From Amoebophrya sp. A120 (lineage: Eukaryota; Protista; Dinoflagellata): DNA of 64,000 nt. Positions 1-64,000 of the stretch are shown piece after piece. The notes under the pieces were generated by a model. It was not told the DNA's origin and did not search any database. It was given only the letters and a program-made list of their open reading frames with translations. The position numbers and the translations under genes are program-made. Each line of letters begins with the position of its first letter. The stretch's first letter is position 1. The DNA lies in NCBI GenBank assembly GCA_905178155.1, contig CAJINV010000023.1, positions 524,289-588,288 of the forward strand. Direction: 5' to 3'.

Positions 1-227
1 ACAAACCTAGGAGTTTTGTGAGTCACGCATCACAAGTTGCAGTCCGTAGTGTAGTGCAGGTTCGCAAGGCCAGCTGCATCAGAAATCCATCCGCTCATCC
101 TGTTTACAGCATTACAAATTCCAAAACACGATTGAAAATGGTTCTCATGCGGATGCGCATTACAAGTCTTCCTGTCTTTGCAAATCTGCATTACAACTCT
201 GGTGTGGGTACGTTTTTCCTCAGGATA

Positions 228-2201
228 ACAACCTCGACTTCGTCACAGCGGACCAACTATCCCAGAGAAAAAAGCAGGCAGGGCATATTTGTATTGCAAA
301 AATAAATACACAGAAAAATCTGTCATGGGAGGCCCCATAGCATGCTGTTCAGGATATGCAATACAGATTTTTTTGTGTATTTATTTTTGCATTACAAATG
401 TGACCTACCTGCTTTTTTTTCTGTGATACCAACTATCAAGGGCAAGTATCCCTGGACGTCTGGAAGATTGCCGGGTTTGTCATGCAGGTTTTGCATGACC
501 TATGATCGATCTGTGATGCATGCCCTAGCATCACAGATGTAGTTTTCAGCTGTTTTTGATGCCTGCAGTGCATGACAAATGCTCTCTCCGCGTACTAGTC
601 AAAACCAACTGGTAGCTCCTCTTGCTGGTCATGCAATACAGATTATAATTTTGAAAAGAACCAAATGCAGCTGCGTCACAAGTTCTTGCCATGTTCCAGA
701 CCCAGATCGATATTTGCAATGCATACCAGCTTTCTGCTTCCGTTCGCTTCCTGCTTCGCCTCTGTGCAAAGCTGGAGGAGGAGCTGGGGGCGGAAGAAGG
801 TCCAGCGCCCCCTGCTACTGCTGCTGCTGCTGCTGCGGATATCCCACGAAAAAACTGTTTCACTGTGATGATCTTGCAAGATCTGCATCACAAGTTTGTT
901 ACACATGACACAGAAAATTTGCCATGCGCGCTTCCAAAGGGAAAACACCGCTAAAGAGTCGAGGTCTTGCGGGTGTGGCAAGACAAATAGTTCTGTGTTC
1001 CATTCTATGCATCACAAGTTTACAGTGAAGCAGTTTTTTCTTGCGATAGAAGCAAAAAAAGAAGGTAGTGTGGCAGCAGGTAGTCAAGAAGATCCTCTTC
1101 ACGACCTGCAGCCGGGCGCCAGCGGCACGACAGAGCAGACGACGACACAAGTACTGGAACTGGGTCCCGACTCGAGACTTCTGTGCCTCTACCCTTTCGG
1201 CGAGGCTAAGCTGGACAAGCGAAAAATGCACGCGTCTATCATGTATCAAATGGAAAAATGTCTGGGTCTGGAAGATTGCTATGTTTGTCATGCATATTTT
1301 CCATGCCCCATGAGGTCTGGAATGCAGGACGGGACCTAGCGTGACAGATCCCGCGAAGTGGTCTCCATCATGCCGATCCTGCATGAGAAAGAACTCCCGC
1401 TCATGTTGGTCAAAAAAGAACAACTTTTGGTGATCACGCAGCCCAGATTTTTGTGTGATCCACAGGACGCATCACAAGTTCCATCCTCACAGACCCAGAC
1501 ACTTTTGCATTTGATATCATGACAGGCGAGCAGCGAAGCGGGCGCACGGACGCGATCCTGTGGCTTTTGTGTCATGCGGACGGGAAGACCACTCTCCGCG
1601 AACTCGCTACCGCAAGAAAAAACTGTACAGCTGTGAACTTGTGATGCATAGAATGGAACGCAAATGTGTTTGTCTTGCTACACATGCAAGACATTAGATT
1701 TTTAGCTGTGTTTTCCCTTAGATAGGATGCACGCATGCCAAGTTTTCTTTGTCATGTGTAACAAACTTGTGATGCAGATATTGCAAAATCGTCACAGTGA
1801 AACAGTTTTTTCGTGGGATACTCGCCGACCGTGCCGCCGACTACCAGAAAAAAGTTTTGCACCGAGTCGCGCGGGACGTTTTTCGTTTCGGGGCCCCTTC
1901 TATCCGATACGAAAAAAGTGTTTCCCTGTAAGGATTTATTTGCAGGTTTTGCATATTAGAAATTTGTTTTCTACATGACAGAGAAAATTTGCCATCAAGG
2001 TTTTCATATTTATAGGGGAAAACACAGCTAAAGCTCCAATGTGCTATGCATGTGTACTGCAAGACAAACACTTGTGCGATACATTTTCTGCATTACAAGT
2101 TTGATACAGTGAAACAGTTTTTTCTGGCGATACCTTCCCTGGAGGATTTAGTGCACTTCGCACGTGATCTCATCGCGTCTAACATGCTTCTGCGAGTATG
2201 A
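228..2201 (+). CDS. 3' part of a DUF4910-type aminopeptidase-like protein with C-terminal winged helix (interrupted; starts upstream of window)
   Basis: Removing elements <1-227, 258-428, 434-725, 840-1048, 1244-1516, 1608-1820 and 1901-2132 (plus one flanking repeat each) gives NLDFVTADQLSASVRF...LCLYPFGEAKLDKRKMH...AILWLLCHADGKTTLRELA...RV*. This matches my recollection of the DUF4910 motifs (DNLDFI..L; EPqLgKR; lwvLn.sDG..sL.diA). The stop at 2199-2201 lies in an element remnant, so the true end may be slightly downstream. Confidence 0.7.
258..428. mobile_element. Introner/MITE family J: nearly fully palindromic 171-bp element
   Basis: Left arm TATCCCAGAGAAAAAAGCAGG..ATTTGTATTGCAAAAATAAATACACAGAAAAATCTGT is mirrored by ACAGATTTTTTTGTGTATTTATTTTTGCATTACAAAT..CCTGCTTTTTTTTCTGTGATA; TSD CCAAC. 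Confidence 0.85.
1608..1820. mobile_element. Introner/MITE family D (representative copy, about 210-230 bp)
   Basis: TIR TA(T/C)CGCAAGAAAAAACTGT..(A/C)CTGT ... ACAGTGAAACAGTTTTTTCGTGGGATA, TSD CTCGC. Other copies at 840, 1901, 12349, 26693, 39449, 46726, 63924. Confidence 0.88.
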
Positions 2202-3117
2202 GAGTGCACAACTCCCCTCCCCCTCCTATCCCTTCTCACTGTCACGAGACGTTGAACAAGTTGATCATATATCGATTTTAAAATGATCGCCTAGAAGTTG
2301 GTGGGTCTTGAATAAATTAAACTGTTGTAATAAAAGCCATTCTACTTACACAACCCAGTAGACCATGAGCTTGCGGTCATTCAAGGACTTGCTTCTTGCG
2401 CCGGCGGAGCTGGTTGAATAGGATGTTGTGCGAGATTAAAATAAAAGCAAAGCGGCGACGTGCGTCAGACCGTATTAAGTAACAAGTGCCCTGGCTGTAC
2501 TAGCCGTAAGAAGTAAGCGTGTTCCGGCTTTTCTCGCCTCCTGCGATTTCATGGTTGAATGTTCCACCTTGTTGTGCGGACTTTTGTTCTGACTCCTTTT
2601 AATTATCGCAATCAACTGCCAATATCCCTGGAAGTCGGGAAGATTTTGCAAGCCAGATTTTTTCATGCCACAGAAGATGAACTGGTAAAAGCATATCTTA
2701 TAAAAATTTCTGGAGATGGAATTTATTGATAAATCGCAAGTACAGTTTACTACTACGGCGGGTAGAAGTTTGATATCCTGAGTAAAAACGTACCCACACA
2801 AGAGTCAGGATGGGGATTTTGCAGCACAAACCTAGGAGTTTTGTGAGTCACGCATGACAAAGTGCACTATGCAGTGTAGTGCAGGTTAGCAAGTGCAGCC
2901 GCATCACAGATTCATCTGCTCATCCTGTTCACAGCATCACAAATTCCAAAACACGACTGGCAATGGCTCTCATGGGGATGCGCATTACAAGTCTTCCTGT
3001 CTTTGCAAATCTGCATTACAACTCTGGCGTGGGTACGTTTTTACTCAGGATATTTGATGTTTTATCATCAGTAGACCATCAGACTCTTCGAAGAATCGAT
3101 TCAAGTAGGGGATAAAA

Positions 3118-5389
3118 ATGGGTATGGAAAGCTATGCATTGCAAAAGTATCGTACTCGTATAAATGCGTGACAAATTTCCTCAGCATGAGAAACAAAATT
3201 TGTAATGCGGATTTATCTTAAGAAAAAGATTTGTAATGCATGACTGCAATTACCACGAGTTGTGCGATACTTTTGCACAGGACAAAAGCGAGTGGGTAGC
3301 GATTTGGGACCGCAAGGGTCGCGAGCGCATATGTATTGCAAAAGTATCCCATACTCGTATAAATGCATTACAAATTTCCTCAGCATGAGACATAAAATTT
3401 GTAATGCGGATTTACCTCAAGAAAAAGATTTGTAATGCATGATTGCAATAGTACGAGTGCGATACTTTTCCCCAGGATAGCGCAGCGCGGACTGCGATGT
3501 GGAGACGTTGATGGGAGCCACCTCGCATGACGGACTCGACTATTCGCGCATCGCTTCTGCCATCCTTTCGGGCGTGAGGTACGCATATCAAATGCAAAAA
3601 TGTCTAGGTCTGGAAACTTGTGTTGCTGATACTTGCATTGCAAACTTGCTGCTTGTACGGCAAAAACGCATCAGAAATTTCCCTCGGCATTCCTTGCGGA
3701 TTTCATTCGTATTTAGCATGACAAAGTACCATATCCAGCACGACAAAAAAACTGGCCAATGGTATTCATGCATTACAGATCTTGTTGTCCTTGAAGTCCT
3801 GCATCACAAATCCAGACCCAGACATATTTGCAATGCATAACGCAAAGGGCGACACGATTTTTGAGGTTGGGTCGGGGGCCGGGCTGCTGGCAAAATACCT
3901 ATCCTGAGTAAAATCGTCCCCACTCCAGAGTTGTCATGCAATTCTGCATGCCAAAAAAGTTTCTCTTGCGGAGCCCTATGACGAGAAGCATTCTCTATTT
4001 CTGTTTTGGAATTTGTGATGCAAAAATCAGGATGCTACGCTAGATCTGTGATGCTTCTGAACTAGCTCAACAGGATTACACTACAAGGACAAACTTGTCA
4101 TGCCAAACAACCAAGGCTGGTTGATTTGTCTAGGAGATTTCCGACCTTGGCACTGGTGTGGGGACGTTTTTAATCAGGATAATACCTTCCGGATCCCTAT
4201 ACCGGCATCGAACCCGCCGCGAGCTTGGTGGAATTTCATCAGAAGAACGAACCCGCGCTATTCTATGTAAAAACGCGCCCACCCCAGAGTCAAGATGGGG
4301 ATCTCGCAACACAAGTCGAGAAGTTTTGGGAGTCACGCATGACAAGTTCCTCTCCGTATCGTGCTGCAGTTTAGCAAGTGAAGCCGCATCACAAAGCCAT
4401 CTAGTCATCCTGCTTATAGCATTACAAATGCCAAAATACGACTGGAAATGCCTCTCATGTAGATGCGCATTACAAATGTTCCTGTCATTGCAAATCTGCA
4501 TGACAGCTCTGGGGTGGGAACGTTTTCACATAGCATACGCGCGAGCTTCCAGCATCCAGGTCGGGCACGCGGGCGAAGTGATATCAAATGCAAAAATGTC
4601 TGGGTCTGGAAGAATGCAACTTGTCATGCTAAATCTGAAGCATGCAAAAATCTGTGTTGCATGATTACCACAAGTCGTCCGGTTTTGACCAAGTCGGGAG
4701 GCAGTTTCTCATGCAGCATAGGCACGATAGAGATCGCACAGAATCTGACGTGCTAGCTCCTGCAATGCAGACCTCGTGGGTCATGGAAAAGCTGCATGAC
4801 AAACTTGCATTCTTCCAGACCCAGATATTTTTGCATTTCATAATCGAGTGCGAGCGACAAGTCCTACGACCATGTGATTCTTTACAGCATCGCGCAGTAC
4901 TTTCCGGATTTGTCCTATTTCAACCAGGCCGTGCGCGAAGCCATCCGTGTGGCGAGGAAGGCCGTGTTTCTGGGCGATCTCCGCACCGTGGGGAGGACAA
5001 AAAACAGTGCTGCCGAACTGGACCACTTGACGGTGAGCCAGGAGGAGTTGCGCGCCATTGACTCCCGCTTTCAGGTGCTCCCCTCGTGTGCTGGGTTGGA
5101 GCATCAGAAGCCGTACGACGCGGTACTGTTTTTGGGGCCCACGATATCGCAAGCAAAAAGTGTTACAGTTACACATTGTGTTGCAATACTGGCAACACAG
5201 ACAACCTTCCTCATGCAGGAAATGCTTTGGAGCCTCGTTTCCTTCCTGTTTTCCCTCAACATAATCTTTGCATTGCAAGTTTTCTCTGTCATGCAAGGAA
5301 AACTTGTGATGCTGAAGTCACAGCAAATGTGTAACTGTAACACTTTTTTCGTGGGATACACGGATGAAAAGGACAATGGATCATCTTAA
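3118..5389 (+). CDS. Class I SAM-dependent methyltransferase (7 element-introns)
   Basis: Elements at 3133-3284, 3330-3479, 3586-3839, 3900-4181, 4259-4537, 4582-4842 and 5145-5358. Joined exons: MGMESEWVAIWDRKG...GDTIFEVGSGAGLLAKY...YTGIEPAASLV...SYDHVILYSIAQYFPDLSYF...RVARKAVFLGDL...SS*. Motif I is EVGSGAG. Confidence 0.85.
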
Positions 5390-6052
5390 AAACTACGATT
5401 CTTGTTGTGATGAACCAGCATCAGCAAAGGAGATAGTATTCTAGTATTTCTTCCCTACTTTAGCTTTATTAATTCACTTCTCAACAACTTCACCTCTGAA
5501 GATGAAGTGCTGATAGAGAGAGATTTGATCATGATTTTGATTGGTGTGGTGCCATCAGAAGATGACCCTAGCGATAGAATCAATTGATTTTTTTTCTGAG
5601 CACAGGCAGTCTCTAGCGACACGGCTTGACATCGACATCAAGACTGATTCGATAATGCAGGAGAAAATCTCCGTATAATACAAAAAGGCTAATTGGTACC
5701 ATTTGCGCATCAAGTAAGGCGCCATGATGAAAAAATATGACCAAATATACAACGGGGAGAAGTCCTAGAAGTGTGCTGACAGCACGAACGAAATCTATTC
5801 AGTGTGCTTTGGAACAACAATAAACTACGGTGATCAGCTTCAACACGAGATTTCACATACGCATAGAAGGACTACTTTAACTATGATCAATGATTAACTT
5901 AGTTTCTTGTGGCACGACTTCTACAAAAGTGGCAAAAAAATAGTCCCCAAGAAAGCAAAGCGGTCACGACTCACTGTGGTCAGCAAGTCCCTCCACCTGT
6001 AGTGTAGTAGTTTCCCTTCGGCGTAGTTGAGCGGTGCTGGGGGTGCACCACT

Positions 6053-9000
6053 ATGGCCGCGTCGTCCTCCCGTCCTGCGACTATGGTATCCTGTGCAAAA
6101 GTATCGTCCTCGTAGTAATTGCAGTCATGCATTACAAATCTTTTTCTCAAGGTAAATCCGCATTACAAATTTTATTTCTCATGCTGAGAAAATTTGTCAT
6201 GCATTATTTATACGAGTACGATACTTTTGCAATGCATAGATGGTCGCGGATGGCAACGCGACGGGGGCCAGCACGACGTCCACGTCGCCCTACTCGATCA
6301 TTGAGGTATCAAAATGAAAAGTCCCCCCTCCCCATATCAAAAGGAAGTTTCTGATGCTGGATTTGCGTATGCAAATCAGGTTTGTCTTGCAGTAGAGTAC
6401 TGCAGGCTCCTGCCAAGATTGAGTAGACAGCTTTTGGCCTAGGCGCTTAGCATGAGAAACGACTAGGCTGTAGGCCCAACAGCATCACAAACCGCCTGCA
6501 TAATGCGGCAGAGCCTGTGGCGTTGTCTTCTTGCAAGACAACCGTGATTTGTGGTCTCAAATCAGCAAGACAAATTTTCGGAAACATACCTGTTCGATAT
6601 GGGGAGGGGGAGTTTTTCCTCTCAATATGAGGTGGCGAACTCTATGGCGGCGTCTGAGTGATTATTGTTTTATCGATTCAAAAATTCCCATTTCAATTTA
6701 AAAACAACTCTTATCCCAAGCTGTATCCATCTCTTCGTCGCGGGTCTGCAGGGTGGTTGCCGTCGCGGTTCCGGTGGTGCGTCAACATCCGGGCTCCAAT
6801 TTATGCATATGAAAAGCGTTCCAATTTGAGCGAGCTAGATAAGGCAGCACAGAGGATGTCTAAATAGGGTATGAAGTAAGCATGTAGCTGAGGCTAATAT
6901 GGGCGCCAATAGCGCCGCTTGTAAGGTATCCTGCCACGCCTGTTGCCGCTGGTGCCCCGTCAAAAATTTGCATTTTTTGCTGCCGCGATTCAACAGAGGT
7001 TTTTAAATGGAAGTTTAGACCTATCAATTTGCCTCTATCTGAGCGCCAATTTCTCAGCGTGATTGAGAGGCTCAGTCCGAGGCTCATTGAGAGGTCTCTA
7101 GAGAGGTCCGCAAATGCCTTCCGCCGATGATATGACGAAAAACAAAGCATACCATGACGGGGCACCAGGAACCAGCAATCAGCCGGCACCTGGGCAAGCA
7201 GCAACGAACCCGCTTCCAGAGGGCCTATTCCGGCCTCTGATTTCACCTTAAGCATGACCAAACTAGTTGCCTTATCTAGCTAGCTCAAATTGGAGCGCTC
7301 GTTTTGACTTGCGTACTCTTCTCCAACTGCTACCACCACGGGAGACGGCACCTGTACGCGCGCACGCGACGCGCGAAACAACACCTAAAGAGCACCTGAT
7401 ACTGCAATGTTTTTACTTTGAAATGGGAATTTTTGAATCGCCTTGACAGTAATCACTCAGACGCCGCCATAAACTCTCACGGTGGCGACTATGAGTACAT
7501 GATGCAACTGCTCGGCGAGTTTAAGGATTTCGGACCGGGCTACGGCATCAAGTTTCAGCCCCTGCACCACACCACGCTCGCGACCCCCGACTTTCCGTCC
7601 TACCCGGTGTACGAGAGTTTTGTCTTCTCCTTCCAGCAATGGGGTACTATTTTCGACGAGGTGCGAAGGACGAGGAAGGATATCTGGCTGGACATCTTTG
7701 ATACCTACGGGGTGGAAGTGCTCGGTCGTCACCTCGGGCAAGTGTACGGCCTGAAGCTGCAGGTGGGGGTTCTGGAGCACCTCCACGTGTTGGAGGCTTT
7801 GAGCCGGCTGGACCTGTCGGACAAGCTGCTGATCATGAACGTGGCCGCTCTGGTATCTTACGTAAACACGTCCCCATCCCATAGTCAAGTTGGCAACTTA
7901 GCAACATAAATCTAGAAGGTTTGGGACCCACGCATGACAAGTTGCGGTCCGTAGTGTAGTAGTGCAGGTTCGTAAGGAAAGCCGCATCACAAATCCTTCT
8001 GCTCATCCTGTTTCCAGCATTACAAATTCTAAAACTCGACTAGATATGCATCTCAACATGGGGACCCGCATTACAAATGTTTCTGTAGATGCAAATCTGC
8101 ATGACAGTTCTGGGGAGGTGGGGACGACGTTTTTACACGCAATATCTGGAAGTGGACGCCATCCGCGTCTTGCTCGCCCGCCTGGAAAACAAGTTGCGGC
8201 CCAGAGAGATCCTTATCCAGGTGGGTATCCTGAGTAAAAACGTCCCCACCCGCCCAGAGTTGTCAAGCAAGTCTGCATGCCAAAAAAAAATCTCATGTGG
8301 AGCCCCATGAGAAGCATTTTCCGTTCATGTTTTGCTGGAATTTCTGATGCTAGAACCAGCATGATATGCTAGATCTGTGATGCTGCTGAACTGGCTAAAC
8401 CAACGGGATCACGCGACGAAATCAAACTTGTCATGCGAACCAAAGTTGCTTTGTCTAGCAGATTTCCCATCTTGACTCTGGTGTGGGGACGTTTTTGCCC
8501 AGGATAGTGGGGTTTCAATCCTTTCCCACCAAGTTTGTCGACTGCGGTCTGGGGAAGCTGCGCACCATCAATATCAAATGCAAATATCCCTGGATGTCTG
8601 GAAACTTGTGTTGCTGGTACTTGCATGGCAAACTTGCTGCTTGTACGGCATAAAAGCATGAGAAATAATTTCCCTCGGCATTCCTTGGGGATTCATTCGT
8701 GTTTGGCATTACAAGCTGCCATCTTCCAGCACGACAAAAAAACTGGCCAATGGTATTCATGCACTACAGATCTTGTTGTCGTTTAAGTCCTGCATCACAA
8801 AGCCAGACCCAGACATTTTTGCATTTGATAATCAAAGACAGTCTTCAAAAGCGCATCGTGTTTGCGGACCACGAGAATCGAGACTTATCAAAAGAAAAAA
8901 TCCCCCCTCCCCATATCAAAAGGAAACTTCTGATGCTGGATTGGCGTACACAAATAAGGTCTGTCATGCTGTAAGGGCAACGCCTGCCCCTAGCTGCTTA

Positions 9001-50766: not shown

Positions 50767-50945
50767 CGGCCACTACTCAGCGCAGCACGGCAATACCGCG
50801 CTCGCCCGAAAACGCACGTGCATCGACGAAGCGATGGAGAGTGTCACTTTTTGTCTTCCTGGTGCTCGCGGGAAGTAGAAAAAGAAGCAATAAAACAGCT
50901 GCAGCGCCTCATAACAGCCTCGATCCGATTGGATGGAATGATTTT
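50767..50945 (+). pseudogene. Element-free duplicate of the 3' end of the 45564-49928 gene
   Basis: Reads GHYSAQHGNTALARKRTCIDEAMESVTFC, against GHYFAHGSTGLARKRTCIDEVTESVIFC in the gene. Similarity continues into the 3' UTR (aaaaagaagcaataa..aacagctg..aacagcctcgatc.gattgg). Both elements (49354-49579, 49613-49880) are absent. Confidence 0.85.
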
Positions 50946-51173
50946 GACCCTTAACCTTGAATATTTACGCGGAGGAGGCTGTATTGAGGTGTATATTAAC
51001 GGAGGAGGACGTGGTAGCTATAGTACTTTGCGCGATTCATTCTGAAGCCGCCAGGGCTGACTGAGATGTTGAGTCTCGGCTCGCTTTCTCGTCGTCGTCC
51101 CACTTGTTCTTTTATGATTTTACTTCCCGAACATGAGCAAGCTTCTGAGGCTCACCACTAAAAAAGCGGGCGG

Positions 51174-52316
51174 TGTTCATCTTTCTCCATGCTTCGGTCC
51201 CGATTGGTTCTGGTTGAGTAACTACAGGACGGCATTTTGTGTAGGCTGAGATAGCTAGTCTGAATGCAGGGACAGGGGGGGCCTGCCCATCGGCTGCGTC
51301 ACGGATTCGTCCTGAGCGCTTTGGCCTCGAGATGCGTGACAGGTAAGTCCTCCGCCGCGGCCTTGGCGTGTCGAGAAGTAGTTCAGGATATGGCAGCGCA
51401 ATTCTGACTGCTCGCACAAGGGCGGCAGTCTCAAACGAGCATGGCCACGGGACCTGGCGCACTATAGCTTCGAAAGAAGTACTCTGTGAGGCGCGGACAG
51501 TGTAGGCGCACAGAGCCAATAAAGTCGCCCGCTTTAGTCCGGGCCCGATTGTGTAACGCCCGTCCTTGCCGGGTTCGCGTGATCATTTTTCCTGACATTG
51601 CTTTTGAAAAGCTGCAAACTTGCGGAAGCAAAAAGGAGGCGGGCCCCCCCTTGAGGGGGGGGGTTTGGGGGACCCCCCTTCGTGGAGATACTAAGGGGGA
51701 GTACCCTTCTGAGGAGGCCCAAAAAGGGGGGGGGGTTTGGGGGTGTTTCTGGGGTACCCTCTGGGGGCTTTTGTTTGCTTCCGGAGACGCAAAATGTTTT
51801 TGCTCTTTGTAAAACAACCGGGGCTGAAAAGCGCTGGCCCGAGACCAAAACCCGAAGTCGTGGCGTATCCGCGGCGCCTAACTCATTGGGGCCGTCGCGC
51901 TTAGCTTTGAATTGTTTGACAACCGGACGTGGCCACCTGTTTTGCCTACCGGGACAAAGGCCGGCTGTTTGCCACGACCCGCGGCACAGACGGCCTCAGC
52001 CTGGCTGCGTAATTCTTTTATCCGACCAGCGCCATTCCATACTGTGTCTGTCCGGCTCCTGCGCCTGCCGTCACAGACCGGACCCGGGACGCAACCGGCG
52101 GCAAAGTCCGTCCTGTTCCTGCATGCAGACCAGCAAATTTGACATGGGCATAAAGCCGCAGCGCTCACGCGTGAGATAGTCGCCGCTGAGACGATATCTA
52201 CTTTTCGCGCTGGGTGATTCGCATGCCCAAAAAAAAAGAAGTTTCGAAGCAAAAAGTTTCTGCCATCGCCATATGTTCATCTTTCTCCATGCTTCGGTCC
52301 CGATTGGTTCTGGTTG
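51174..52316. repeat. Perfect 43-bp direct repeat pair 1100 bp apart
   Basis: TGTTCATCTTTCTCCATGCTTCGGTCCCGATTGGTTCTGGTTG at 51174-51216 and 52274-52316. Confidence 0.85.
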
Positions 52317-52448
52317 GGACCACATTTGTCGCCAGCTTCTTGTTTTTAGTACACTTAGGAACTTAGATAGAAGGAACAGTTGTGCGGTAAGTACATGATA
52401 GTATGCTAAGTAAAGAGTAGGTAAGTAGCCGAATTAGAAAAAGATTAG

Positions 52449-55400
52449 ATGGGGAGCAGCGACGCAGCGGCCACCGACGCCGCCAGCTATGAACTGCAAA
52501 TATGTCTGGGTCTAGGAGATTGCGAGACTTGTCATGCTAGTCTGGCATGACTCTGAGCTTTGTATTGCGCGGCCGCAAAGAGCTCCTGCTCTTGCCTGTA
52601 ATGCAGAAACGCAGGTTCATCTCATGCGGAGTACGCAACTCAGAACCACGGAAATAAAACTTGTCATGTTTAGCAGCGCATCAGAGTGTGCTCACTATTT
52701 CCTTTCTTGCATCACAAATCTCCAGACCAAGACCACGTATTTGCATTTGATACCAGCGTGGTGACCACAACGACAGCTGCTAGCAGTCATTATGACAGTG
52801 CACAACCCCCCCTCCCCCTCATTTGTATAGCATGAACGGCAATACAAGCATGCATCAGCAAGAGTGCCTGTTTTGCATGACAAATTTCAACTGCATTGTA
52901 GTGCTATTTGGGCTATCAGAACTTCTCATGCAAGCAGTGCCAAAAGAAAAAAGGTGGACTGGGTATTTTGCATGACAAATGAGGGGGAGGGGGAATTGTG
53001 CACTGTCATAGTCATCATGCCGAGGATACAACACTTCTCGCGGACAAAACTTCTACCAGCGACTATCCCGTGTAAAATAAACGTCCCTACCCCAGAGTTG
53101 TCATGCAGATCTGCAAGCACAAGAGCATTTGTAATGCGCATTCGCATGATAGCTAGGCATTTCCGATCATGTTTTGGAACTTGCAATGCTGTAAACAGGA
53201 TAAAAGGCAGATGGATTTGTAAAAATGCGACTTCCCTCTGCTAAACTGCGCTACAATACAGCCTGCAACTTGATGTCATGCGTGCCTCCCAAATCCTTGC
53301 GGCTTTTGTTGCAAGATCCCCATCTTGACTCTGGGGTGATGTGGGCCCCGTTTTTCCTTCGGATAGCGACGCGGCCATGATTACGACCAGTAAACTATTG
53401 TGAGGAAAAATCCACCCTCCCCATATTGAAAGGGTATGTTTTCGAAAATTTGTGTTGCTGATTTGAGGTCACAAGTCAGATTTGTCTTGCAAGAAGACAA
53501 GGGCAGAAGCTTCCTCCCTATTATGGAAGCGGCTTTTCATGCTGTTGAGCCTAAAGGGGAGCCGTTTGCCATGCTGAACAACTAGACCCATGCGCCCCTA
53601 CCTAGCCAGGGGATCTGGCCGCAATGTCTCTCTGCAATACATAGCTGATTTGTGTACACAGATCCAGCATCAGAAATTCCGTTTTGATGTGGGGAGGGGG
53701 AGTTTTTCCTTTCAATATAAACCGGTGCTGGTCGGTGCCGGCGGAGGCGATGCTGTCCCACCTGCTGCTAGCTCTCCTCATATCAACTGTAAAAATATGT
53801 CTGGGTCTGGAAGATTCTGACACTTGTCATTGCATGAGCCATGACGTCTGTGATGCATACCCTAGGAATACAGATTTTTTGAGGGCTTCTTGATGCGTAT
53901 TCCGCATGACAAATGTCTTCTCAGCGTAGCAAAAATTGCACTTCCGTTGGTACTCGCGCAATACAGATTTTTTTGGAATCCAAATGCAGCATCACAGGCT
54001 GCATTCTTCCAGACCCAGACATTTTTACATTTGATACCTCAGCAAGAGCTGCAAAAAATGAAAGCGACAACGACCCCCGCAGGGACGAGTACTAGTAGCT
54101 CAACATCTGTTGGTATCACAGGAAAAAAGTGTTACAGTTACACATTTGTTGGAGTTTCTGCATCACAAAGTTGCTCGAAATGGCACAGAAAACCTGTGAT
54201 GCGCAGACTTTAAGGGAAATAAACACGTACGAAATAAATTTCAAAAAGTTAGCAAGCATTTCCGGCATGACAGAGGTTGTCTGTCTTGCTTGTCTTCCAT
54301 GAGAGTGTGTAACTGTACCACTTTTTTCTCAGGATAGTTGGAGTGGTCATTTTCGGCGCGCTGGGGATGTTGGGGATCTTATCCTGAGTAAAAACGTCCC
54401 CACCTCCCCAGAGTTGTCATGCAAATCTGTATGGTAAAAATGCTTCTCATGCGGAGCCCCATCATGAGAGGCATTTTTTAGTCGTGTTTCGCAATTTGTC
54501 ATGCTCCAATCCGCATGTTGTGCTGGATCTGTGATGCTGCTGCACTAGCTAAACAGGATCACACTATGAGGCCAAATTTGTCACGCAAAACTCGAAGAAA
54601 ACTTGGGGATTTGTCTTGCAGACTACTTCCCATCTTGACTATGGAGGTGTGGGGATTGTTTTACATGTGATAGATGTACGTTGCCCGAGTCTTGGAGAAA
54701 ATGAACGTGAGCTGCAAGAGTATTACAATGAAAAATGCCCCCTCCCCATATCAAAACGGGAATCTGTGATGCAGATTTGGGGTCACAAATCAGCTTTGTG
54801 ATGCTAGAAGGCAAAAGATGCGGACTGTAGTGCTGTCTAGCGTGGGAAAGCCTTGCAGCTCCAGGATGACAGGAGGCAACTGGAAGTGGGAAACAGCATG
54901 ACAGATTGCCTGCAATTTAGGCCGCAGCTTCGTCTCTTGGCCTTCTAGCAATACAAGTCGATTTGTGTACTCAAATACAGCATCACAAATTCGCGCATCT
55001 TCCGTTTCCGATATGGGGTGGGGGCTTTTTTCACTTTGATAAAGAGCAAGGAGAAGGTCGTGGAACAATATCCAAGGAAAAAACTGTGTTAGTGTAACTT
55101 TCTTTGGCTGACAGCATCACAAATTTGCTCTACATGACAGAGAAAACCTGTCATGCGTGCCTTATATTATAAGGGAAAACACACATGAAAAGCGAACTTC
55201 ATGGTTGTGTGGCATGACAGGTGTAACTCTGTTGCATGTTCTGCATCACAGAGTTACACTTACACAGTTTTTTTCTTGCATAAACAAATGTCTACTGAGA
55301 CAACTACTCACGAGGCTGTCGAGGCCCCCGTCGAAACCACCACCTACTTGGCTGGGCGCGGAAAATTTGACATCCTGTCTGCCGACTGGGCGGCGCTGGA

Positions 55401-58400
55401 GCGGTATCTCCGCGAAATCGTCGACCGACACGCGAAAGTGCTTGTCGTCAATTGCGCCGGCGTGACGCCGAAGGATTTTTTGGCTGACAGTGCGCAGGCC
55501 GTGCTGGTAAACAGTTGCTTTCCCTTGAAACTCGCGGAGATAGTGAACGCGAAACTCGACGGACGGGCGCAACTGGTCCACATTTCCACCGACATCGCCT
55601 CGGTCACGTCGTCTGGCGAGGCGCTCCGCGTGTGCCAGGACGCTTTATCAAATGCAAATATGTCTGGGTCTGGAACCTGTATCGCGTGTTTCGCATTCCT
55701 AAAAAATCTGTATTTTTGTAGAAGCAGCAAATAAAGCACCACACTTTCGCACATGCAAAAACGCAGTTTGTAATGCTTCCTGCGCATGAAAGAGCGTTGG
55801 AAAAATTTGTCATGCGGCTCTGCACTCCAAGGCACAGTCACTCTTCATGGCCATTCAGCATTACAACTTTCCAGACCCAGACTTTTTTGCAATTCATGCG
55901 CTTCGACCCCGAACCATTTTTACCGGCTCACGAAAATCCTCGGGGAACCCGTATCACGAGAAAAAAGTGTTACAGTTACACACTCGGATGGAAGACAAGC
56001 AAGACAGACAACCTCTGTCATGCAGGAAATGCTTGCCAGCCTCATTTCATTCGTGTTTTCCCATATAGTCTGCGCATCACAGGTTTTCTCCGTCACACAG
56101 AGAAAATTTGTGATGCTGAAATTCCAACAAATGTGTAATTGTAACACTTTTTTCCTGTGATAACCCGGGGGCGCGCAGCACTCCGCGGCCATGATTGTCC
56201 GAACCTCGTTCGTACCAAATGCAAACATGTCTGGGTCTGGAAAAATGCAACTTGTGATGCTGAATTTGGATTGGATTCCAAAAAAATCTGTATTGCATGA
56301 GCAGCAAAGGGAACGCAATGCTTGCTACGCGAGTAGGGCATTTGTCATGCGGAATAGGCATCAAGAAGCCCTCAAAAAGTCTGTGATGCTAGGGCGTGCA
56401 TCACAGACGTCATGGCTCATGCAAAATGTGCATGACAAGTCTCAGAATGTTCCAGACCCAGACACTTTATTTGCATTTGATAGTTCGTGGGAGAGGAAGC
56501 CTTCAACCGGAAGTATCGCGAGGAAAAATTCCCCCTCCCCATATCGAAACAAGAAAATTTGTGATGCTGGTTTGTGACCACATAAACTCAGCTTTGTCTT
56601 GCGTACAAGGCAAACGGCACCCATATGTACAGCGAGCCTGTCATGGGTTTTCCCCTATCCTATTTAGAAACGTCCCCACCCCATAGTTGTAATGCAAATC
56701 TGCATGCCGAAAATGTTTCTCATGCGGAGCCCCATGAGAAGCATTTTCCAATCGTGTTTTGCAATTTGTCATGCTCCAATCGGCATGGTATGCTAGATCT
56801 GTGATGCTGCTGAGCTAGCTCAAACAGCACTACACTACGAATCCAAATTTGTCATGCAAAACAGCCAAAGCTTGTGGATTTGTCTAGCCGATTCCCCAAC
56901 TTGACTATGGTGTGGGGACGTTTTTACTCAGGATATCCCCTATGTCAGACTTATTTCTCCTGCTCAGCCGCTAGCCGGATGAGTTGTAGTACCCAAATGG
57001 GCTTAGAATATGCCGACAAGCTGCTCCTGCCGCAATACAAAGCTCATTTGTGTACACAAAGAATCTTCCAGCAACACAAATTGTCTTTGGAGTATGGAGT
57101 GGGGGCTTTTTTCAATTTGATAGGCAGCACCTCCTGGAGTGGCTGAAGCGGTCGAGTGGCACGGAGATCCAGGGTATGAATTGCAAAAGTGCTGTCTGGG
57201 TCTGGAAGAATGCGCGATTTGTCGTGCAGCTTTTCCGTGACCCATGAGGTCTGGAATGCAGGACCTAGCATGACAGATTCTGTGCGATCTCTCTCATGCA
57301 TATCCTGCATGAGAAACTTCCTCCCGACTTGGTCAAAACTGGACGACTTTCGGTAATCATGCAACACAGATTTTTGCATGCTTCAGACTTAGCATGACAA
57401 GTTCCATGATTCTTTCCAGAGGACCCAGACATTTTTGCAATCCATACAGGGCTACCGGGATCAGTTCTGGAGCGGTACAACCTGTTTGAACGTGGTATTC
57501 CCAGGAAAAATGCCCCCAACCCCGAATCGTTGGGAGCTGCATTTGTATTGCAAACCTTTCCAAATGAAACATTCTCCCTCTACTTGCATCTATCAGCATC
57601 ACAGGTTACTTATTTCCCATCGAGAATAGAAAAAATTTGTATTGCAAAAGACCCTAGAGAGAGCGGCGCTTCTCATGCAAGCGATGCGAGGATACACGCC
57701 GAGACTCTGCATCAGAAAGATTCATACTCCTTTCATGCATGACAAAAAGTTTTCATTTGGAAACCTCGCATCTTCACAAATTTTTGCAATTTCAGGGGTG
57801 GGGGCATTTTTCACTGTAATACGTGGCCCGTTTTGTTCGCGACCTGGCCGTCGGCACGGAACCCTTCCGCCCCGGGGTCTTGCGGCTCGAGTATCCAATG
57901 TAAGAATGTCTGGGTCTGGCAGATTGCGAGGTTTGTCATGCACATTTTGCATGACTCCTGATGTCTGTGATGCATGCCCTAGCATCACAGATTTTGTGAG
58001 GGCTTCCTGATGCCTATACCGCATGACAAATGCTCTTTCCGTGTAGCGAAACCTGGACTCTCATCTTTGCTGCTCATGCAATACAGATTTTTTTAGAATC
58101 CAAAATCAGCATGACAAGTTGGATTCTTCCAGGAGACCCAGACATTTTTACAGTTGAAATCGGGGGCCAGCACACACTGTCCAAGTTCGAAGTCTGCAAG
58201 GCCATCAACGAGGCTTTCCATTATCCTCAGTAAAAACGTACCCACACCAGAGTCAAGCTGGGGATCTCGCAACACAAATCGAGGAGTTTTGGGGGTCCAG
58301 CATGACAAGTTCGTCTCTGTATTGTAGTGCAGTTTAGCAAGCACAGCCGCAACACAAATCCATCTACTCATCCTGTCGACAGCATTACAAAGCGCAAAAC

Positions 58401-61400
58401 GCGATTGGAAATGCCTCTCATGTGGATGCGCATTACAAATCTTCCTGTAGCTGCAAATCTGCATGACAACACTGGGGTGGGTACATTTTTGCTCAGGATA
58501 TCCATCTCGGGATAGACATTACGGAGGCCAACGCGCCGTTGCACCAACTCTCCCACCAAACAGAAAAGGAGATGGGGGAAACGAAACCAGGCGTCGAAGT
58601 GAAACGCATCGGTATTACAGTGACAAATGCCCCCACCCCCAAAGTTGCAATAATTTGTGATGCGAAGTTCCCAAATAAAAACTTTTTGTGATGCATGAAA
58701 GGAGTATGAATCCTTCTGATGCAGAGTCTAGGCTTATATAGTAGCATCGCTTGCATGACAAGCCCCGCTCTTGCTGGGATCTTTTGCAATACAAATGCTT
58801 GTCAACATCACGGTTGCAAATCTGTGATGCTGATAGATGCAAGAGGGCGAGCGTTTCATTTGGAAAGGTTTGCAATGCAAATGCGTCGAAGTTCCGGGGT
58901 GGGGGCATTTTTCATTGTAATAATCGGCACGGATTCCTTCTTGAAAGATGTGACGGAGATGCGAGAGTTTGTATCAAATGTAAAAATGTCTGGGTCCGGA
59001 AGATTCATGCTGTTTTTGCATGACACAGAAGGTCTGGCATGGAAGCTCTAGCATCACAGGTTTCGAGAAGCTTCCGCAATGCCGAACCCGCATGAGAAAT
59101 CCCCCATTTTGGTGACAGAAAGTGGGCAGCTTTTGCTACCTATGCATGAGAGATTTTTCTGTGTTCGAAAATGCGCATCACAAGTTCGGATCCTTCCAGA
59201 CCCAGACATTTTTGCATTTGATAGTTTGGCGTCTTCGACAAGGGTATGGATTGCGAAAATGTCTGGGTCTGGAAGATTGCAACTTGTCGTGCTGTTTTTG
59301 GATTCCAAAAAAATCTGTATTGCGTGACCAGCAACAGGACTCCAGTTTGTGTTACGCGGAGAGGGCATTTCTCATGCGGAACAGGCATCAGCAAGCCCTC
59401 TAACTACAAGCTGTGATGCTAGATCATGCATTACATGCGTCGTGGATCATACGAAAGACGCATCACAAATTCCGGAATCTTCCAGACCCAGACATTTTTA
59501 CATTTGATAAAGGGCGACTTTACCGTGCGCGACCAGTGCCGTTTTTGCCCGCCGGAAACCAAGCAAACGGTCCGGGATATCCTGAGTAAAAACGGGGCCC
59601 ACACGACACCAGAGTCAAGATGGGAATAATTCTGCTAGACAAATCACCCAGCTTTGGTTGTTTGGCGTGACAAGTTTGATGTCCTCGTAGTGTAAAAATC
59701 CTGTTATTTTAGGTAGGTCAGCAGCATCACAGATCTAGCATAGCGTGCTGATTCTACCATCACAAATTCCACAACACGAATAGCGAATGCTTCTCATGGG
59801 GCTCCGCATGGGAAACTTTTTTGGCATGGAGATTTGCATGACAACTCTGGGCGGGTGGCGACGTTTTTACACAGGATACGGGAAGTGTTCCACTTAGCGG
59901 ACGTCGGCCTGGCCGGCGGTATCAAATGTAAAAGTGTCTGGGTCTGGAAACTTGTGATGCTAGAATGTGGATGATGGAAACACTTCCGAATGCAGCCCAG
60001 CATGACAACTTTCCAGAATGCTTTCTCATAGGAGGTCCGCATTAGAAACTGCGTTTTTGCATGACAATAGTGGCTGCGTCCTTTGTTGCTTATGCAATAC
60101 AGATGTTCCAGTAATTTAAAGCTAGCATTACAGGTTCCGACTTTCCAGACCCAGACATTTTTGCATTTGATAGGCGGGTTTCTCAGCCGGCGGGAAGACG
60201 TTTTGTACGAAAAGCTGTACCCCCTTAGCCTGTGCAAAAGAAGTATCGTATTCGTATTGCAGTCATGCATTACAAATCTTTTTTCCGAGGTAAATCCGCA
60301 TTCCAAATTTTATTTCTCATGCTGCGGAAATAATTTGTAATGCATCTATACAAGTATCGGATGCTTTTGCAGTTCATACCCCTGTATCAAATGTAAAAAT
60401 GTCTGGGTCTGGAAGAATTGGAACTTGTGATGCTGACTTTGGTCTCTAAAAAAATCTGTATTGCATGACCAGCGACAGGAGTCTAGTTTGTGCTACGCCG
60501 GGAGGGCGTTTGTCATGCGGAATAGGCATCAGGAAGCCATCTCAAAATCTGGGATGCTAGGTCATGCATTACAGACATCCTGGGTCATGCAAAACATGCA
60601 TGACAAGTCTCAGCATCTTCCAGACCCAGACATTTTTACAATCCATACCCCGACCGTGCTGTTTTGCGAGCAGTCCAACACGGCTTGGATCCGCGAAGTG
60701 GTTCCGCATATCCTATGTAAAAACGTCCCCACCCCATAGTCAAGACGGAACCACGTCTCTATATGTGGCCACATTATAGTTATTTCCGTACTTCACCTAC
60801 GTCATTCTCTCCTTTTTAACTTCAACAAAGTTATAAACTTCTCTGTGCTTTAAATCTGGTCTTTTCCAGTACATAAAACACCCCATAGTCAAGATGGGGA
60901 ATCGGCTAGACAAATCCACAAGGTTTGGCTGTTTTGCATGACAACTTTGGCACCGTAGTGTAGTTCTGTTTGAGGTAGTGAAGCAGCATGACAGATCTCG
61001 CATATCATGCTGATTGGAGCATGACAAACTCCAAAACACTACTTAGAATATGCTTCTCATGGGGCTGCGCATGAGAAACATTTTCAGCATGCAGACTTGC
61101 ATGACAACTCTGGGGTCGTGGGGACGTTTTTAAATACGATACCGCAGGAGAATCTGTTCGTCAGCATCAACGGGGGCGCCGGGTACTTCTACTACTCGTC
61201 TACCATTCCCAGCCTGGTCACCCACTTCCGGGTATCAACTGCAATTATCGCTCTGACACGTCTGGACGGATGCAAGGTCGTTTGTCATGCACATCTTGCA
61301 TGACTTCTGACATCTGTGATGTATGCCCTAGCATCACAGATTTTGCGAGGGCTTCCTGATCCTGATGCCTATATTACCGCATGAGAAACAAATGCCCTCT

Positions 61401-64000
61401 CGAATATACCGTGGCAAAAACGGGACCTCTTTTGCTATTCCTGCGCGACAGATTTTTGTAGTATGCAAATGCAGCATCACAAGTTACATCCTTCCAGACC
61501 AAGAGGGCGACATATTTGCAATGCATACCGGGGCCTCGCGGACGAAATCCAAGCTCGGTTTCCCAACGAGAAAAAACTCCTGGTATGAACTGCAAATATG
61601 TCTGGGTCTGGAAGAATGCAAGTTTGTCATGCTTGTCTGGCATGACTATTAAATCTGTCATGCACGCTATCCAAGAGCCCCATTTTTCTGTCATGCAGAA
61701 ACGCAGGTTGTCATGCACAATAGGCAACACCTAGCAACTCAGAAACTTGTCATGCTGAGCCGTTATTTGTGGCATCCTCATGATTCGCCACTCAGCATCA
61801 CAAGTTTCCAGACTCAGACATATTTGCATTTGATACCTGGAAATCGGGTGCAACGACGGGGTACTGCTCACCCCGCTGCGAGACGTATCAAATGCAAATA
61901 CGTCTGGATAACTGGAAGGATGTGAAATTGTGATGCGCATTTCACAACACACACAACACATAGGCAGCAAAAGATGCCCACTTCCTGTCACCAAAGGGGG
62001 GCATTTGTCATGCAGATTAGGCATTGCGAAACCTTCTCGAGCCCTGTGATGCTAGGGCTTCCATGCCAGACCTTCTGCGTCATGCAAAAACAGCACGATA
62101 TCTTCCAGACCAGCCATATTTGCATTTGATAAGACGTGTACGGGTACCACTGCATCGGTGTCGATCCTTCCGCCGCCATTCGTGCCGTGCCGCCTGCACC
62201 CCCGCTCGAGACCGGCGGCGACTGCTCTGGGTCGACAAACGGCTCCATCGTGGCCATCGAAGACTTCTTCTGCACACGGGTGTGCAGCGAAATTTTGCAG
62301 AAGTACGGACCCCTGGACGTGGTCGTCGGTTGTAACTGCCTCGCCCACATCGACGACATGCAGGAAATTTTCGAAAACATTCACCGCATCCTGAAACCCG
62401 GAGGCAAGCTCGTGTTCGAAGTGCACTACGTAGGTCACATCGTCGACGGCATGTATCCTGAGTAAAAACGTACCCACCCCAGAGTTGTCATGCAGATTTG
62501 CCATGACAGCGACAGGAACATTTGTGATGCGCAACCCCATGACAGGCATTCTCAATCGTGTTTGGGAACTTGTAATGCTGTAAACAGGATCAGAAGGTCG
62601 ATTTGTGATGCGGCTTTCCTTGCTAACTTGCACTACCTTACGGACTGAAACTTGTCATGCGTGACTCCTAAAGCTCCTAGGTTTGTGTTGCAAAATCCCC
62701 ATCCTGACTCTGGTGTGGGTACGGTTTTACTCAGGATAGCATGAACTTCGATTTTATTTACCACGAGCACATGAGCTACTACAGCTTCGGCACGGTGTAT
62801 CGCACGAAAAAAGTGTTACAGTTGCACATTTGTTGGAGTTTCCGCATCACAAATTTTCTCTGTGTGGCAGAGAAAACTTGTAATGCGAAGATCATAAGGA
62901 GAAACAGGAAGGAAACGAGGCTCCCAAGCATTTCCTGCATGAGAAAGGTTGGCTCTATTGCCGGTCTTGCATAGACTATGTGTGTAACTGTAACGCTTTT
63001 TTCTTCCCATACGGTGAAGTCCATTTGCCATCGGTACGGTTTTTGGCCGCTGGACATCCAGCAGATCGCCAATCACGGTGGCTCCCTGCGTATCAACTGC
63101 AAATGTGTCTGGGTCTGGAAACTTGTGATGCTGGGTGGCGTATTATGATGAGGCCACAAGTGCCGGCTCAGCATGACAAATTTCTGAGCTTCGAGGTTTT
63201 CTTGCCTATTCTGAACGACAAACTGCATTTCTGCATGACAGAAAAGCGGAACTCTAGGGTAACGTGTATGACAGATTCAAGAGTGATGCCAGACAAGCAT
63301 GACAAACATGCATTCTTCCAGACCTAGAGAGAGTTTTTGCACTTGATACTGCGCGTCTTCCTGCAGAAGGAGGAAGTATGAGATGCAAGATGAGCATCGT
63401 CTTAGTTGTAGAGATTGCATTACAACCATGCTCAGCATTAGAAATGGAATTTGTAATGCGGATTTATCTTGATAAAAAGAGTTGTCATGCATTTCATATT
63501 TACAATTAGTGCGAGTGCGATGCTTTTGCAATTCATAGGAAGTGGCGCAGGCGGATTTGCTCGTCTGGCAGGAAAAAATGAACAAGGCCTTCCATTTATC
63601 CTGAGCAAAAACCTCCCCACCCAGTAGTCAAGTTGGTAAATCTGCTACACAAATCGCCAAGCTTTGGGAGTGTGCATGACAAGTTTGTCCTCGTAGTGTG
63701 AAGATCCTGTTTAGCTAGTGCAGCAGCATCCCAAATCTAGCCTATCACGCTGGTTCTAGCATCACAAATTCCAGAGAACGACTAGAAAACGCTTCTCATA
63801 GGGCTCCGCGTGGGAAACTCTTGTGGCATCATGCAGATTTGCATTACAACTCTGGGATGGGGACGTTTTTGCTGAGGATAGAATGACAGCTTCGCCGCCG
63901 ACCTGTTGCGGGAGGAGGGCCTGGTATCGCAAGAAAAAACTGTTTCACTGTGAACTTGTGATGCAGAAAATGGATCGCAGAAGTGTGTGTCATGCTACAC
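52449..64000 (+). CDS. Fusion: RmlD-like NDP-4-keto-sugar reductase (extended SDR) + NDP-hexose C-methyltransferase; 3' end beyond window (34 element-introns in window)
   Basis: SDR part: VVIFGALGMLG..VVNCAG..N.CFP.KLA..VHISTD..YRLTKILGE..IVRTSFVG..LLEWL..GYRDQFWSG. It continues in frame into QCRFC..LAGGFL..LYPLTVLFC..YFYYSS..LEIGCNDGVLL..GVDPS..NCLAHIDD..LKPGG..FDFIYHEHMSYYS..HGGSLRVF. Confidence 0.88.
52791..53010. mobile_element. Introner/MITE family K
   Basis: TIR TATGACAGTGCACAA.CCCCCTCCCCCTCATTTGT ... ACAAATGAGGGGGAGGGGGAATTGTGCACTGTCATA, TSD GTCAT. A remnant lies at 2197-2244. Confidence 0.85.
58613..58922. mobile_element. Introner/MITE family F (representative copy, about 310 bp)
   Basis: TIR TATTACAGTGA.AAATGCCCCCACCCC ... 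GGGGTGGGGGCATTTTTCATTGTAATA, TSD ATCGG. Other copies at 29586, 38439, 40790, 57496. Confidence 0.88.

Follow-up and report, generated by a model that had tools for sequence, protein, structure and literature searches.

Where exactly are the elements that interrupt the genes of the marine parasite Amoebophrya cut out, and by what signals is the cut placed? The question is raised by a 64,000-nt stretch of Amoebophrya sp. A120 (GCA_905178155.1, contig CAJINV010000023.1, positions 524,289–588,288, forward strand), here called the window, in which an earlier note had described about 130 TAT...ATA elements with 5-bp repeats, interrupting seven genes and removed either as non-canonical introns or by excision from DNA. 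How such elements are spliced had been left open because their borders could not be placed. Wherever the cut can be located in the window, it falls 1 nt ahead of TAT and 4 nt past ATA, and a single register makes concrete tests possible. This position is the new detail; the elements themselves are already known. Judged from their sequence, they are the introner elements, or non-canonical introns, published for A120 (PMC7789003): three reconstructed frames are letter-for-letter the same as public A120 proteins, which identifies the elements with those of Farhat et al. 2021, who reported 29,850 repeated introns making up 17% of the assembly (PMC7789003).

Several sequencing runs bear on the question. 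Run X1 is DNA-like and was read as contigs. Runs X5–X8 come from one sample and exist as contigs only, and their RNA status is guessed, as no record says RNA. The raw-read runs X9 and X10 placed just 5 and 17 reads over 1–14800.

The elements

The curated set holds 137 elements (135 top-level and two nested), from 145 to 940 nt long with a median of 268 nt, summing to 37,433 nt or 58% of the window. Curation was by hand, with 12 internal end-like matches removed and eight degenerate pairs included. A strict scan gave 251 TAT...ATA pairs with complementary ends, 78 of them with an exact flanking 5-bp direct repeat; five simulated sequences matched in dinucleotide composition gave 11–18 candidate pairs each, and exact or one-mismatch repeats in none. 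A scan without the TAT anchor returned 117 candidates, 95 of which start with TAT. In the curated set, the left end is TAT in 128/137 and the right end ATA in 131/137, and an A is found at end positions 11–13 in 129–134 of the 137 elements. An exact direct repeat of length 5 flanks 112 of the 137, and none has an exact repeat of length 4, 6, 7, 8 or 9. Paired ends are present in all elements, with a median terminal duplex energy of –39.8 kcal/mol, against –12.8 kcal/mol after shuffling, and the longest ungapped terminal inverted repeat (TIR) measures 66 nt. The sequences fall into 11 families at 50% coverage and 13 at 70%, in keeping with the "at least 11" counted before. (Two further elements are truncated by the window ends, and two unpaired left ends lie at 2197 and 30756.) Some elements stand apart:

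6643–7471: long, single-copy element, 829 nt; interior covered in X1, depth 0 in X5
26693–27632: at 940 nt the longest element; contains internal repeats
20756–20963: element nested within an element of gene G4
56656–56935: nested element in gene G7
2774–3052, 14511–14781, 44943–45216, 50025–50235 and 50297–50595: the five elements outside coding spans

The 139-aa ORF inside the element at 6643–7471 had no Pfam match.

The interrupted genes

When each element is removed together with 5 nt, seven open reading frames are restored, with 6, 7, 21, 28, 24, 11 and 33 junctions, respectively (130 in total):

228–2201, + strand: G1, the 3′ part of a gene truncated by the window start; 6 elements; X5 contig pieces at 1052–1236 and 2133–2475
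3118–5389, + strand: G2, 214 aa; 7 elements; an X5 contig connects 5139 to 5359
6053–14351, + strand: G3, NeuB and cytidylyltransferase fusion, 659 aa; 21 elements; Pfam PF03102 and PF02348; identical to public protein P0001
20232–30752, + strand: G4, cytidylyltransferase and NeuB fusion, 658 aa; 28 top-level elements; PF02348, and PF03102 on exon 28944–29117
34055–43059, + strand: G5, 796 aa when translated from the first ATG used; 24 elements
45564–49928, + strand: G6, 477 aa; 11 elements
52449–64000, + strand: G7, RmlD-like and C-methyltransferase fusion (Pfam), exceeding the window; 33 complete top-level elements and one cut

The six split motifs on which the earlier note had relied are all found in the reconstructed ORFs, and its view that the genes look functional is supported. 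P0001, P0005 and P0006 are reproduced with no differences over 659, 727 and 312 aa, the last two matching 727 aa of G7 and residues 1–312 of G4 (P0006 being a partial protein), and this only in register 4 of the six registers tried. These proteins are transcript-derived models and may not be independent of X5–X8. Three exons of the window match proteins bearing the name Amoebophrya sp. A120 at 100% identity, so that the comparison with Amoebophrya drawn in the earlier note turns out to concern the host itself. Homology searches for G3, G4 and G7 returned no close orthologue: apart from the identical A120 proteins, the matches were three distant homologues of G3. Four of nine single exons scanned against Pfam had no match, among them the one exon of G2 so scanned, and an Rfam scan at the gathering threshold gave no matches. 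A GxGxG motif, judged by eye, suggests that G2 may be methyltransferase-like.

In G1, the elements 258–428 and 434–725 abut with one repeat copy in common, which under a fixed register leaves an exon of 0 nt, and G7 has a 1-nt exon at 60383.

Removal and the cut register

How much is removed cannot be gauged from the integrity of the frame alone, since deletion of the element plus 2 nt also leaves six tested frames open; it is the RNA-like contigs that fix the removed length at the element plus 5 nt. Between 39420 and 43200, in G5, the element and 5 nt are skipped at nine of nine joints in each of X5–X8, so that the precise loss of element and one repeat copy, which the earlier note had proposed to look for in RNA, is found in these likely RNA contigs. 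In G3, distances in X5 contigs match the removal of 18 further elements (573, 96, 300 and 0 nt agree). For one element of family F4, at 40063–40384 with the left end TAC, removal is incomplete: a second contig extends 204 nt into it from the exon at about the depth of the joined form. The element is kept in about half of the molecules, its neighbours not being kept. The retained contig carries a 13-letter tail with no match in the window at up to two mismatches. The non-TAT left end does not on its own account for the retention, as element 42313, which starts with TAA, is joined out (its interior depth is 0 in X6 and X7 and low in X5 and X8).

An exact repeat leaves the cut inside it unplaceable, and aligners can thus report any position. 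The 25 imperfect repeats are more revealing: 20 are informative, and a single register is compatible with all 20, N-TAT...ATA-NNNN, in which the intron takes in 1 nt ahead of TAT and 4 nt beyond ATA (the other five gave no answer, one being silent in the protein and four uncovered). The ten read in contigs span four families and both element orientations and have only position 4 in common, with a chance of 0.006 if the cut were uniform; the ten further repeats, informative in protein, all include position 4. Six of the 20 force a cut at or after position 4, five force it at or before, and register 5 creates a stop in G4. The polarity of the register with respect to transcription was read from + strand genes, as all seven are. 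Three features of G5 illustrate how the cut is pinned:

39752–40013: F1 element; repeats differ at position 5; joint 39746>40014 keeps the right copy, placing the cut at or before repeat position 4
40790–41104: F6 element; repeats differ at position 4; joint 40788>41109 keeps the left copy, placing the cut at or after position 4
43167–44397, + strand: 3′UTR intron, 1,231 nt, without flanking direct repeat; the junction cannot slide

The 3′UTR intron has the same 1-nt and 4-nt overhangs, and its ends pair at –38.2 kcal/mol; it also contradicts the earlier generalization that every intron here has a 5-bp repeat. Since the register leaves exactly one target copy, the original coding sequence is restored, which explains how elements can sit at about 12 per kb of coding sequence without any residue change.

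Splice signals and a possible mechanism

What marks the cut? At the resolved register, 58/137 introns start with GT, 11/137 end with AG and 3/137 do both, so these are not U2-type GT...AG ends, and in just five of the 137 elements could a GT-AG be drawn by sliding within the repeat, much as the earlier note had observed. Position +5 is C in most introns, not G. A G occupies position +1 in 56/124, against 37.6 expected (p=3.5e-4), with no mirror excess of C at repeat position 1. T+2 and A+3 deviate in 0/137, against 6/137 at the mirror end (p=0.03), and the A lying 7 nt upstream of the 3′ cut (–7) deviates in 1/137, against 9/137 at the mirror position (p=0.02); these end asymmetries depend on six and nine events, among several tests. 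The A at –7, found in 136/137, is a candidate branch nucleotide, and this spacing is that of group II introns. Stem mismatches are G-U in 159 cases and A-C in 148 (p=0.57), a null result repeated in four stem segments, giving no sign of selection on RNA pairing and no sense-strand bias.

The fixed offset suggests a way in which splicing likely proceeds without the normal signals. The spliceosome probably uses the hairpin ends and a ruler in place of AG. The inverted ends would pair and bring both splice sites together, the spliceosome core would take N-T-A as a relaxed G-T-A donor, branching would occur at the near-invariant A, and the 3′ cut would be set by distance. Removal may be guided by the paired ends, as the earlier note proposed: the ends are always paired, but G-U and A-C mismatches are even in number. 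Nearly all spliceosomal proteins and the U2, U4, U5 and U6 snRNAs are found in A120, with U1 not detected (PMC7789003).

The elements themselves are likely DNA transposons of a non-autonomous kind that duplicate 5 bp of target, presumably inserted by an integrase-like (Ginger-like) transposase whose gene lies elsewhere; a transposase was sought in 11 ORFs of the window, in long elements and intergenic DNA, with no Pfam match for any. We propose that they would be tolerated because they can be spliced in either orientation. More tentatively, one ruler, N-TAT...ATA-NNNN, might serve the non-canonical introns of A120 in their tens of thousands, splicing having been rewired so that the intron is defined by the ends of a transposon: the 5′ site would need only T+2 and A+3, the branch would be the fixed A at –7, AG would be dispensable and the repeat irrelevant, and any insertion of this transposon, whatever its orientation or target, would make a perfect intron. 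A single register predicts the branch nucleotide, the 5′ site bases and changes in U5, U6 and Prp8, and it would allow rule-based re-annotation of the borders of some 30,000 A120 introns.

Alternative routes of removal

Could the elements be removed in another way? Ciliate IESs are TA-bounded and are cut precisely from DNA, leaving one TA, and a similar excision before transcription, in a life stage absent from X1, would suit transposon-like ends with terminal TA; moreover, the RNA status of X5–X8 is guessed, and contigs cannot show rare or stage-specific element-free DNA. Nevertheless, this is highly improbable. Exon contigs of X1 pass into element ends at a depth of 37–45, much like contigs over non-coding DNA (42–43), whereas X5 contigs skip element interiors and end a few hundred bases past the stop codons. 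Nor would DNA excision readily account for one element being kept in half of the molecules when its neighbours are not, for the precise joining of a repeat-less intron that cohesive ends could not rejoin, or for mismatched repeats that appear in the contigs in a single version each, with no variant letters listed. In PMC7789003, the elements are treated as RNA-seq-supported introns, and the main text uses the word "excision" 0 times. With the element and 5 nt absent from RNA-like contigs and elements present in the DNA-like run, RNA splicing is favored over DNA excision, and the elements likely stay in the genome and are spliced out of pre-mRNA. Thus, of the two routes offered by the earlier note, the intron is supported and DNA excision is not. 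Where it had proposed to look for element-free DNA, the X1 contigs retain the elements, with depth as normal (rare or stage-specific excised forms would be invisible in contigs). It is also hard to credit that RNA splicing cuts variably inside the repeat, as published, and that the observed register is local or accidental. The legend to Fig. 3 of PMC7789003 does give the sites as variable and the border as unknown, and automated calls in the part of PMC12130899 used here give duplications of 2–6 bp and mixed mechanisms, but all 20 junctions that are informative agree on one register with the repeat-less intron. All nine predominant A120 motifs (Table S4) begin with NT, as the register predicts; aligner preference could also cause this, so it is not independent support.

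A more serious competitor, if still an unlikely one, is non-spliceosomal removal from RNA, in which an endonuclease would cut at fixed distances from the stem that the paired ends form, giving a fixed register, and a ligase would join the exons. A route of this kind was put forward for the non-conventional introns of euglenids, which have paired ends and exit as circles without lariats (PMC11282704, in the part used here). It would fit ends that always pair, the missing AG and G+5 signals, the existence of 0-nt and 1-nt exons, and the failure to detect U1 in A120 (PMC7789003). On the other hand, the +1 G preference and the invariant T+2 and A+3 resemble a GT-A donor, the nearly complete set of spliceosome proteins handles the GT-AG introns that make up about one-third of A120 introns (PMC7789003), and the stems carry no signal of selection for pairing. 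Splicing by the spliceosome with a ruler is the preferred explanation.

Relationship to known systems

Ciliate IESs are alike in their terminal TA and their precise removal from coding sequence, but the window elements lose both TAs and leave one variable 5-bp copy, and X1 keeps them. The introners of Micromonas and Aureococcus and the introns of Fritillaria borealis are likewise MITE-like elements, with TIRs and target site duplications (TSDs), that became introns leaving one target copy; these have fixed dinucleotides (GT/GC-AG, or AG-AC/AT after TAC), whereas the window elements have no set 3′ dinucleotide and are fixed only for the T at +2 (PMC11282704, as far as the part used here goes). 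Euglenid introns, described in the same part of that source, resemble the window elements in having paired ends and TSD-like repeats, in lacking GT-AG and in their unknown machinery; their end motifs are different (CAG/CTG), and they are released as circles.

Transposons offer a further comparison. Gozashti et al. 2025 list A120 family 38 as Ginger-like with "5-bp TSD, TA/TA termini" (PMC12130899). Ginger transposons have TGTNR termini and a 4-bp TSD (5 bp in TDD-4/5), according to the part of PMC2836005 used here; the window termini are TAT, not TGT, and the 5-bp duplication fits the TDD type only. The A120 families of Gozashti et al., compared by description, are TIR elements of about 150–330 and 810 bp with TIRs of about 25–70 bp, occurring as tens of introns per gene, and both splice sites are often called co-opted from the duplication. 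They differ in that the automated duplications range over 2–6 bp, mechanisms vary, and no common register is given in the rows compared, 41 of the 58 for A120 (PMC12130899, in the part used here).

The closest relatives are the published A120 introners, with TAT-N7-AAA inverted ends, lengths of about 240–270 nt, no GT-AG, absence from transcripts and a direct repeat across the border, given as 5 bp in the legend to Fig. S19 (PMC7789003). That paper has inverted repeats of 8–20 nt, its motifs being exact palindromes, against a median ungapped TIR of 29 nt (quartiles 16–32) in the window, which is in line with the TIRs given in file 8 of PMC12130899. Its repeats are 3–5 nt with variable or unknown borders, and those of the window are uniformly 5 bp in one register; the density is also far higher, at 124 per 10.6 kb of coding sequence (about 11.7/kb) against 1.42/kb genome-wide (PMC7789003). 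The window elements nevertheless have the traits of introners: inverted TAT ends, a repeat overlapping the border, several families, borders other than GT-AG, and being skipped in X5–X8, which are likely RNA.

Elements and the genes they interrupt

An earlier note had described about 130 TAT...ATA elements with 5-bp repeats, in at least 11 families, and these are real. A window scan for complementary-ended TAT..ATA pairs gave 251 candidates, 78 of them with an exact 5-bp direct repeat alongside, and five simulated sequences contained no pair flanked in this way; without the TAT anchor, 117 candidates were found, of which 95 start with TAT. The final set, obtained by an end-library scan and pairing (12 internal matches were removed and 8 degenerate pairs added, both by hand), holds 137 elements (135 top-level and 2 nested) of 145–940 nt, making up 58% of the window. 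An exact flanking repeat of 5 bp is present at 112/137 elements, and one of 4 or 6–9 bp at none; the other 25 have imperfect 5-bp repeats. BLAST groups the elements into 11–13 families; mean identity is 73–84% in the large families, which occur in both orientations. Coding spans (11.2 kb) contain 130 elements, whereas 14.4 kb of DNA outside them contains 5, and the locus is unusually dense, with ~11.7 introns per kb of CDS against 1.42 genome-wide. The terminal inverted repeats, uniform 5-bp duplication, nesting and dual orientation indicate that the elements spread as non-autonomous DNA transposons. The window yielded no transposase. An element at the G4 stop codon (30756–30998) has a degenerate right end and is flanked by an ~18-bp duplication instead of the 5-bp repeat, and a ~170-bp unit recurs in tandem-like fashion within the 940-nt element (26731–27521).

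Deleting each element plus 5 nt yields the open frames that had been claimed, seven plus-strand ORFs (G1–G7) across 130 junctions without any other intron. Exon searches returned 100% identity to proteins named Amoebophrya sp. A120. A NeuB/cytidylyltransferase fusion is encoded by both G3 and G4, an RmlD-like/C-methyltransferase fusion by G7. Against three distant homologues (38–44% identity), one of them named from a Polaribacter MAG, G3 is gap-free at 18 of the 19 junctions covered. The NeuB, cytidylyltransferase, RmlD-like and C-methyltransferase genes, of sugar-nucleotide/nonulosonic-acid type, lie close together (6053–14351, 20232–30752 and 52449–64000). A bacterial origin is a candidate reading of these sequences that would explain the absence of GT-AG introns.

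Removal of the elements

Are the elements lost from RNA or from DNA? Run X1 resembles DNA: the interiors of elements are covered as well as non-coding DNA, and X1 contigs pass from exons into element ends at a depth of 37–45. In contigs of X5–X8, four runs of one sample taken by guess to be RNA, 18–19% of the words of 7000–14000 are present, exons are covered, elements are skipped, and ends fall past stop codons. For every one of the 9 elements between 39420 and 43200, X5, X6, X7 and X8 alike contain the joined form, and the stretch skipped is always the element plus 5 nt, as the earlier note had expected of transcripts. For G3, the piece distances in a 2,315-nt X5 contig (573, 96 and 300 nt) fit the loss of 18 elements.

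At element 40063–40384, contigs also read 204 nt inward (depths 26/172/111/91, versus 25.5/117/66/67 for the joined form), partial retention of the kind expected of splicing. The DNA excision that had been offered as an option is thus unlikely, and its confinement to an unsampled life stage is very improbable, given that DNA-like contigs retain the elements while X5–X8 skip them and retain one in part. At 40033–40266, roughly one in two G5 molecules of X5–X8 runs into this element and ends after 204 nt; the 13-letter tail of the retained contig has no match anywhere in the window. By hand, the reading frame into the element stops some ten codons in, and a truncated form of G5 may exist.

A single cut register

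An exact repeat hides the cut, but imperfect repeats reveal it. The register k is the number of left-copy repeat bases kept, so that k=4 gives an intron N-TAT...ATA-NNNN.

Values of k allowed at ten imperfect repeats (element left end; k; source)
840; {3,4}; contig piece ends
4582; {3–5}; contig piece ends
5145; {0–4}; contig piece ends
12349; {4,5}; contig piece ends
39752; {0–4}; contig
40063; {3–5}; contig
40790; {4,5}; contig
41372; {2–5}; contig
41783; {3–5}; contig
42313; {1–5}; contig

The sole common value is k=4, across four families and both element orientations; under a uniform cut, any shared k arose in 0.6% of simulations. Ten further informative junctions in public proteins are each compatible with k=4, which alone reproduces P0001, P0006 and P0005 (matching G3, G4 and G7) with 0 differences over 659, 312 and 727 aa. 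With k=5 a stop appears in G4, and k≤3 gives 1–6 differences per protein. The other 5 of the 25 imperfect repeats comprise one that is silent in protein and four outside coverage. According to PMC7789003, BLAT and EST2GENOME were used to build the A120 models on transcript assemblies; the models reflect RNA, yet may lack independence from X5–X8. P0006 is a partial model, and removal by rule extends G4 to a 658-aa fusion with the full NeuB region.

The cleanest case, which was unplanned, is a 1,231-nt intron in the G5 3'UTR, where all four runs X5–X8 join 43166 to 44398. It begins one base before TAT and stops four bases after ATA, the register of the elements, and its ends pair in that register at -38.2 kcal/mol; it has no flanking repeat, so the junction cannot slide and the repeat is unnecessary for removal. 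A 29-bp direct repeat (43096–43124 and 44436–44464) close to both ends hints at an origin by rearrangement. Long spacers nearly without elements (14782–20243, 30990–33950 and 50596–52448) may hide further long UTR introns; they carry GC-rich repeats of other kinds, and one of these shows weak similarity to the inside of this intron.

The intron is therefore N-TAT...ATA-NNNN, a result drawn from a single window, genes on one strand and a single RNA-like sample. That cut positions vary within the repeat, as published, is very improbable, since the ten contig junctions, the ten protein junctions and the repeat-less intron agree on k=4. Under the fixed register, adjoining elements at 258–725 leave a 0-nt exon, one repeat copy being common to both, and those at 60226–60647 a 1-nt exon (60383), which implies sequential removal.

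Probable splicing mechanism

With anatomy, removal and register established, we infer that the machinery is probably the spliceosome. G is enriched at intron +1 (56/124 versus 37.6 expected, p=3.5e-4), while the mirror C predicted by a symmetric target preference is absent (41 versus 38). T+2 and A+3 deviate in 0/137 (mirror end 6/137, p=0.03); for the A that lies 7 nt upstream of the 3' cut the figure is 1/137 (mirror position 9/137, p=0.02). Counts are small in both cases. AG ends only 11/137 introns. This has the look of a relaxed GTA donor, read from the N-T-A start, with the fixed A as candidate branch A and a 3' cut that would be placed by distance rather than by AG. The small counts speak against a spliceosomal route, as do +5, which is mostly C, and the sense-strand stem mismatches, where G-U does not exceed A-C (159 versus 148) and so gives no sign of selection for RNA pairing. 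In favour of pairing, every pair of element ends forms a duplex (median -39.8 versus -12.8 kcal/mol shuffled), and a lone left end that overlaps the G1 stop codon, at 2197, is kept in the X5 contig at 2133–2475. Cutting and ligation of the RNA is a less likely alternative. For the spliceosome, PMC7789003 reports U2, U4, U5 and U6 in A120 together with an almost complete set of spliceosomal proteins, U1 snRNA being undetected.

Comparison with known introners

The element system is already described: the end motif here is identical to that given for A120 introners in PMC7789003 (TAT, then seven variable bases and at least three A), where the Fig. S19 legend already shows the 5-bp repeats and S23 places inverted repeats 1–5 nt from splice sites. 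All nine predominant A120 motifs in its Table S4 begin NT, which is compatible with the register, although aligner bias could produce them. PMC12130899 files one A120 family as Ginger-like, with a 5-bp TSD and TA termini, whereas true Ginger ends are TGT (PMC2836005). No statement of a fixed register for A120 introns was found in the literature searched, subscription papers and some figures aside. In PMC7789003 the sites are described as variable and the border as unknown, probably because an exact repeat conceals the cut; the single register contradicts these 'variable' borders and makes the open splicing mechanism directly testable.
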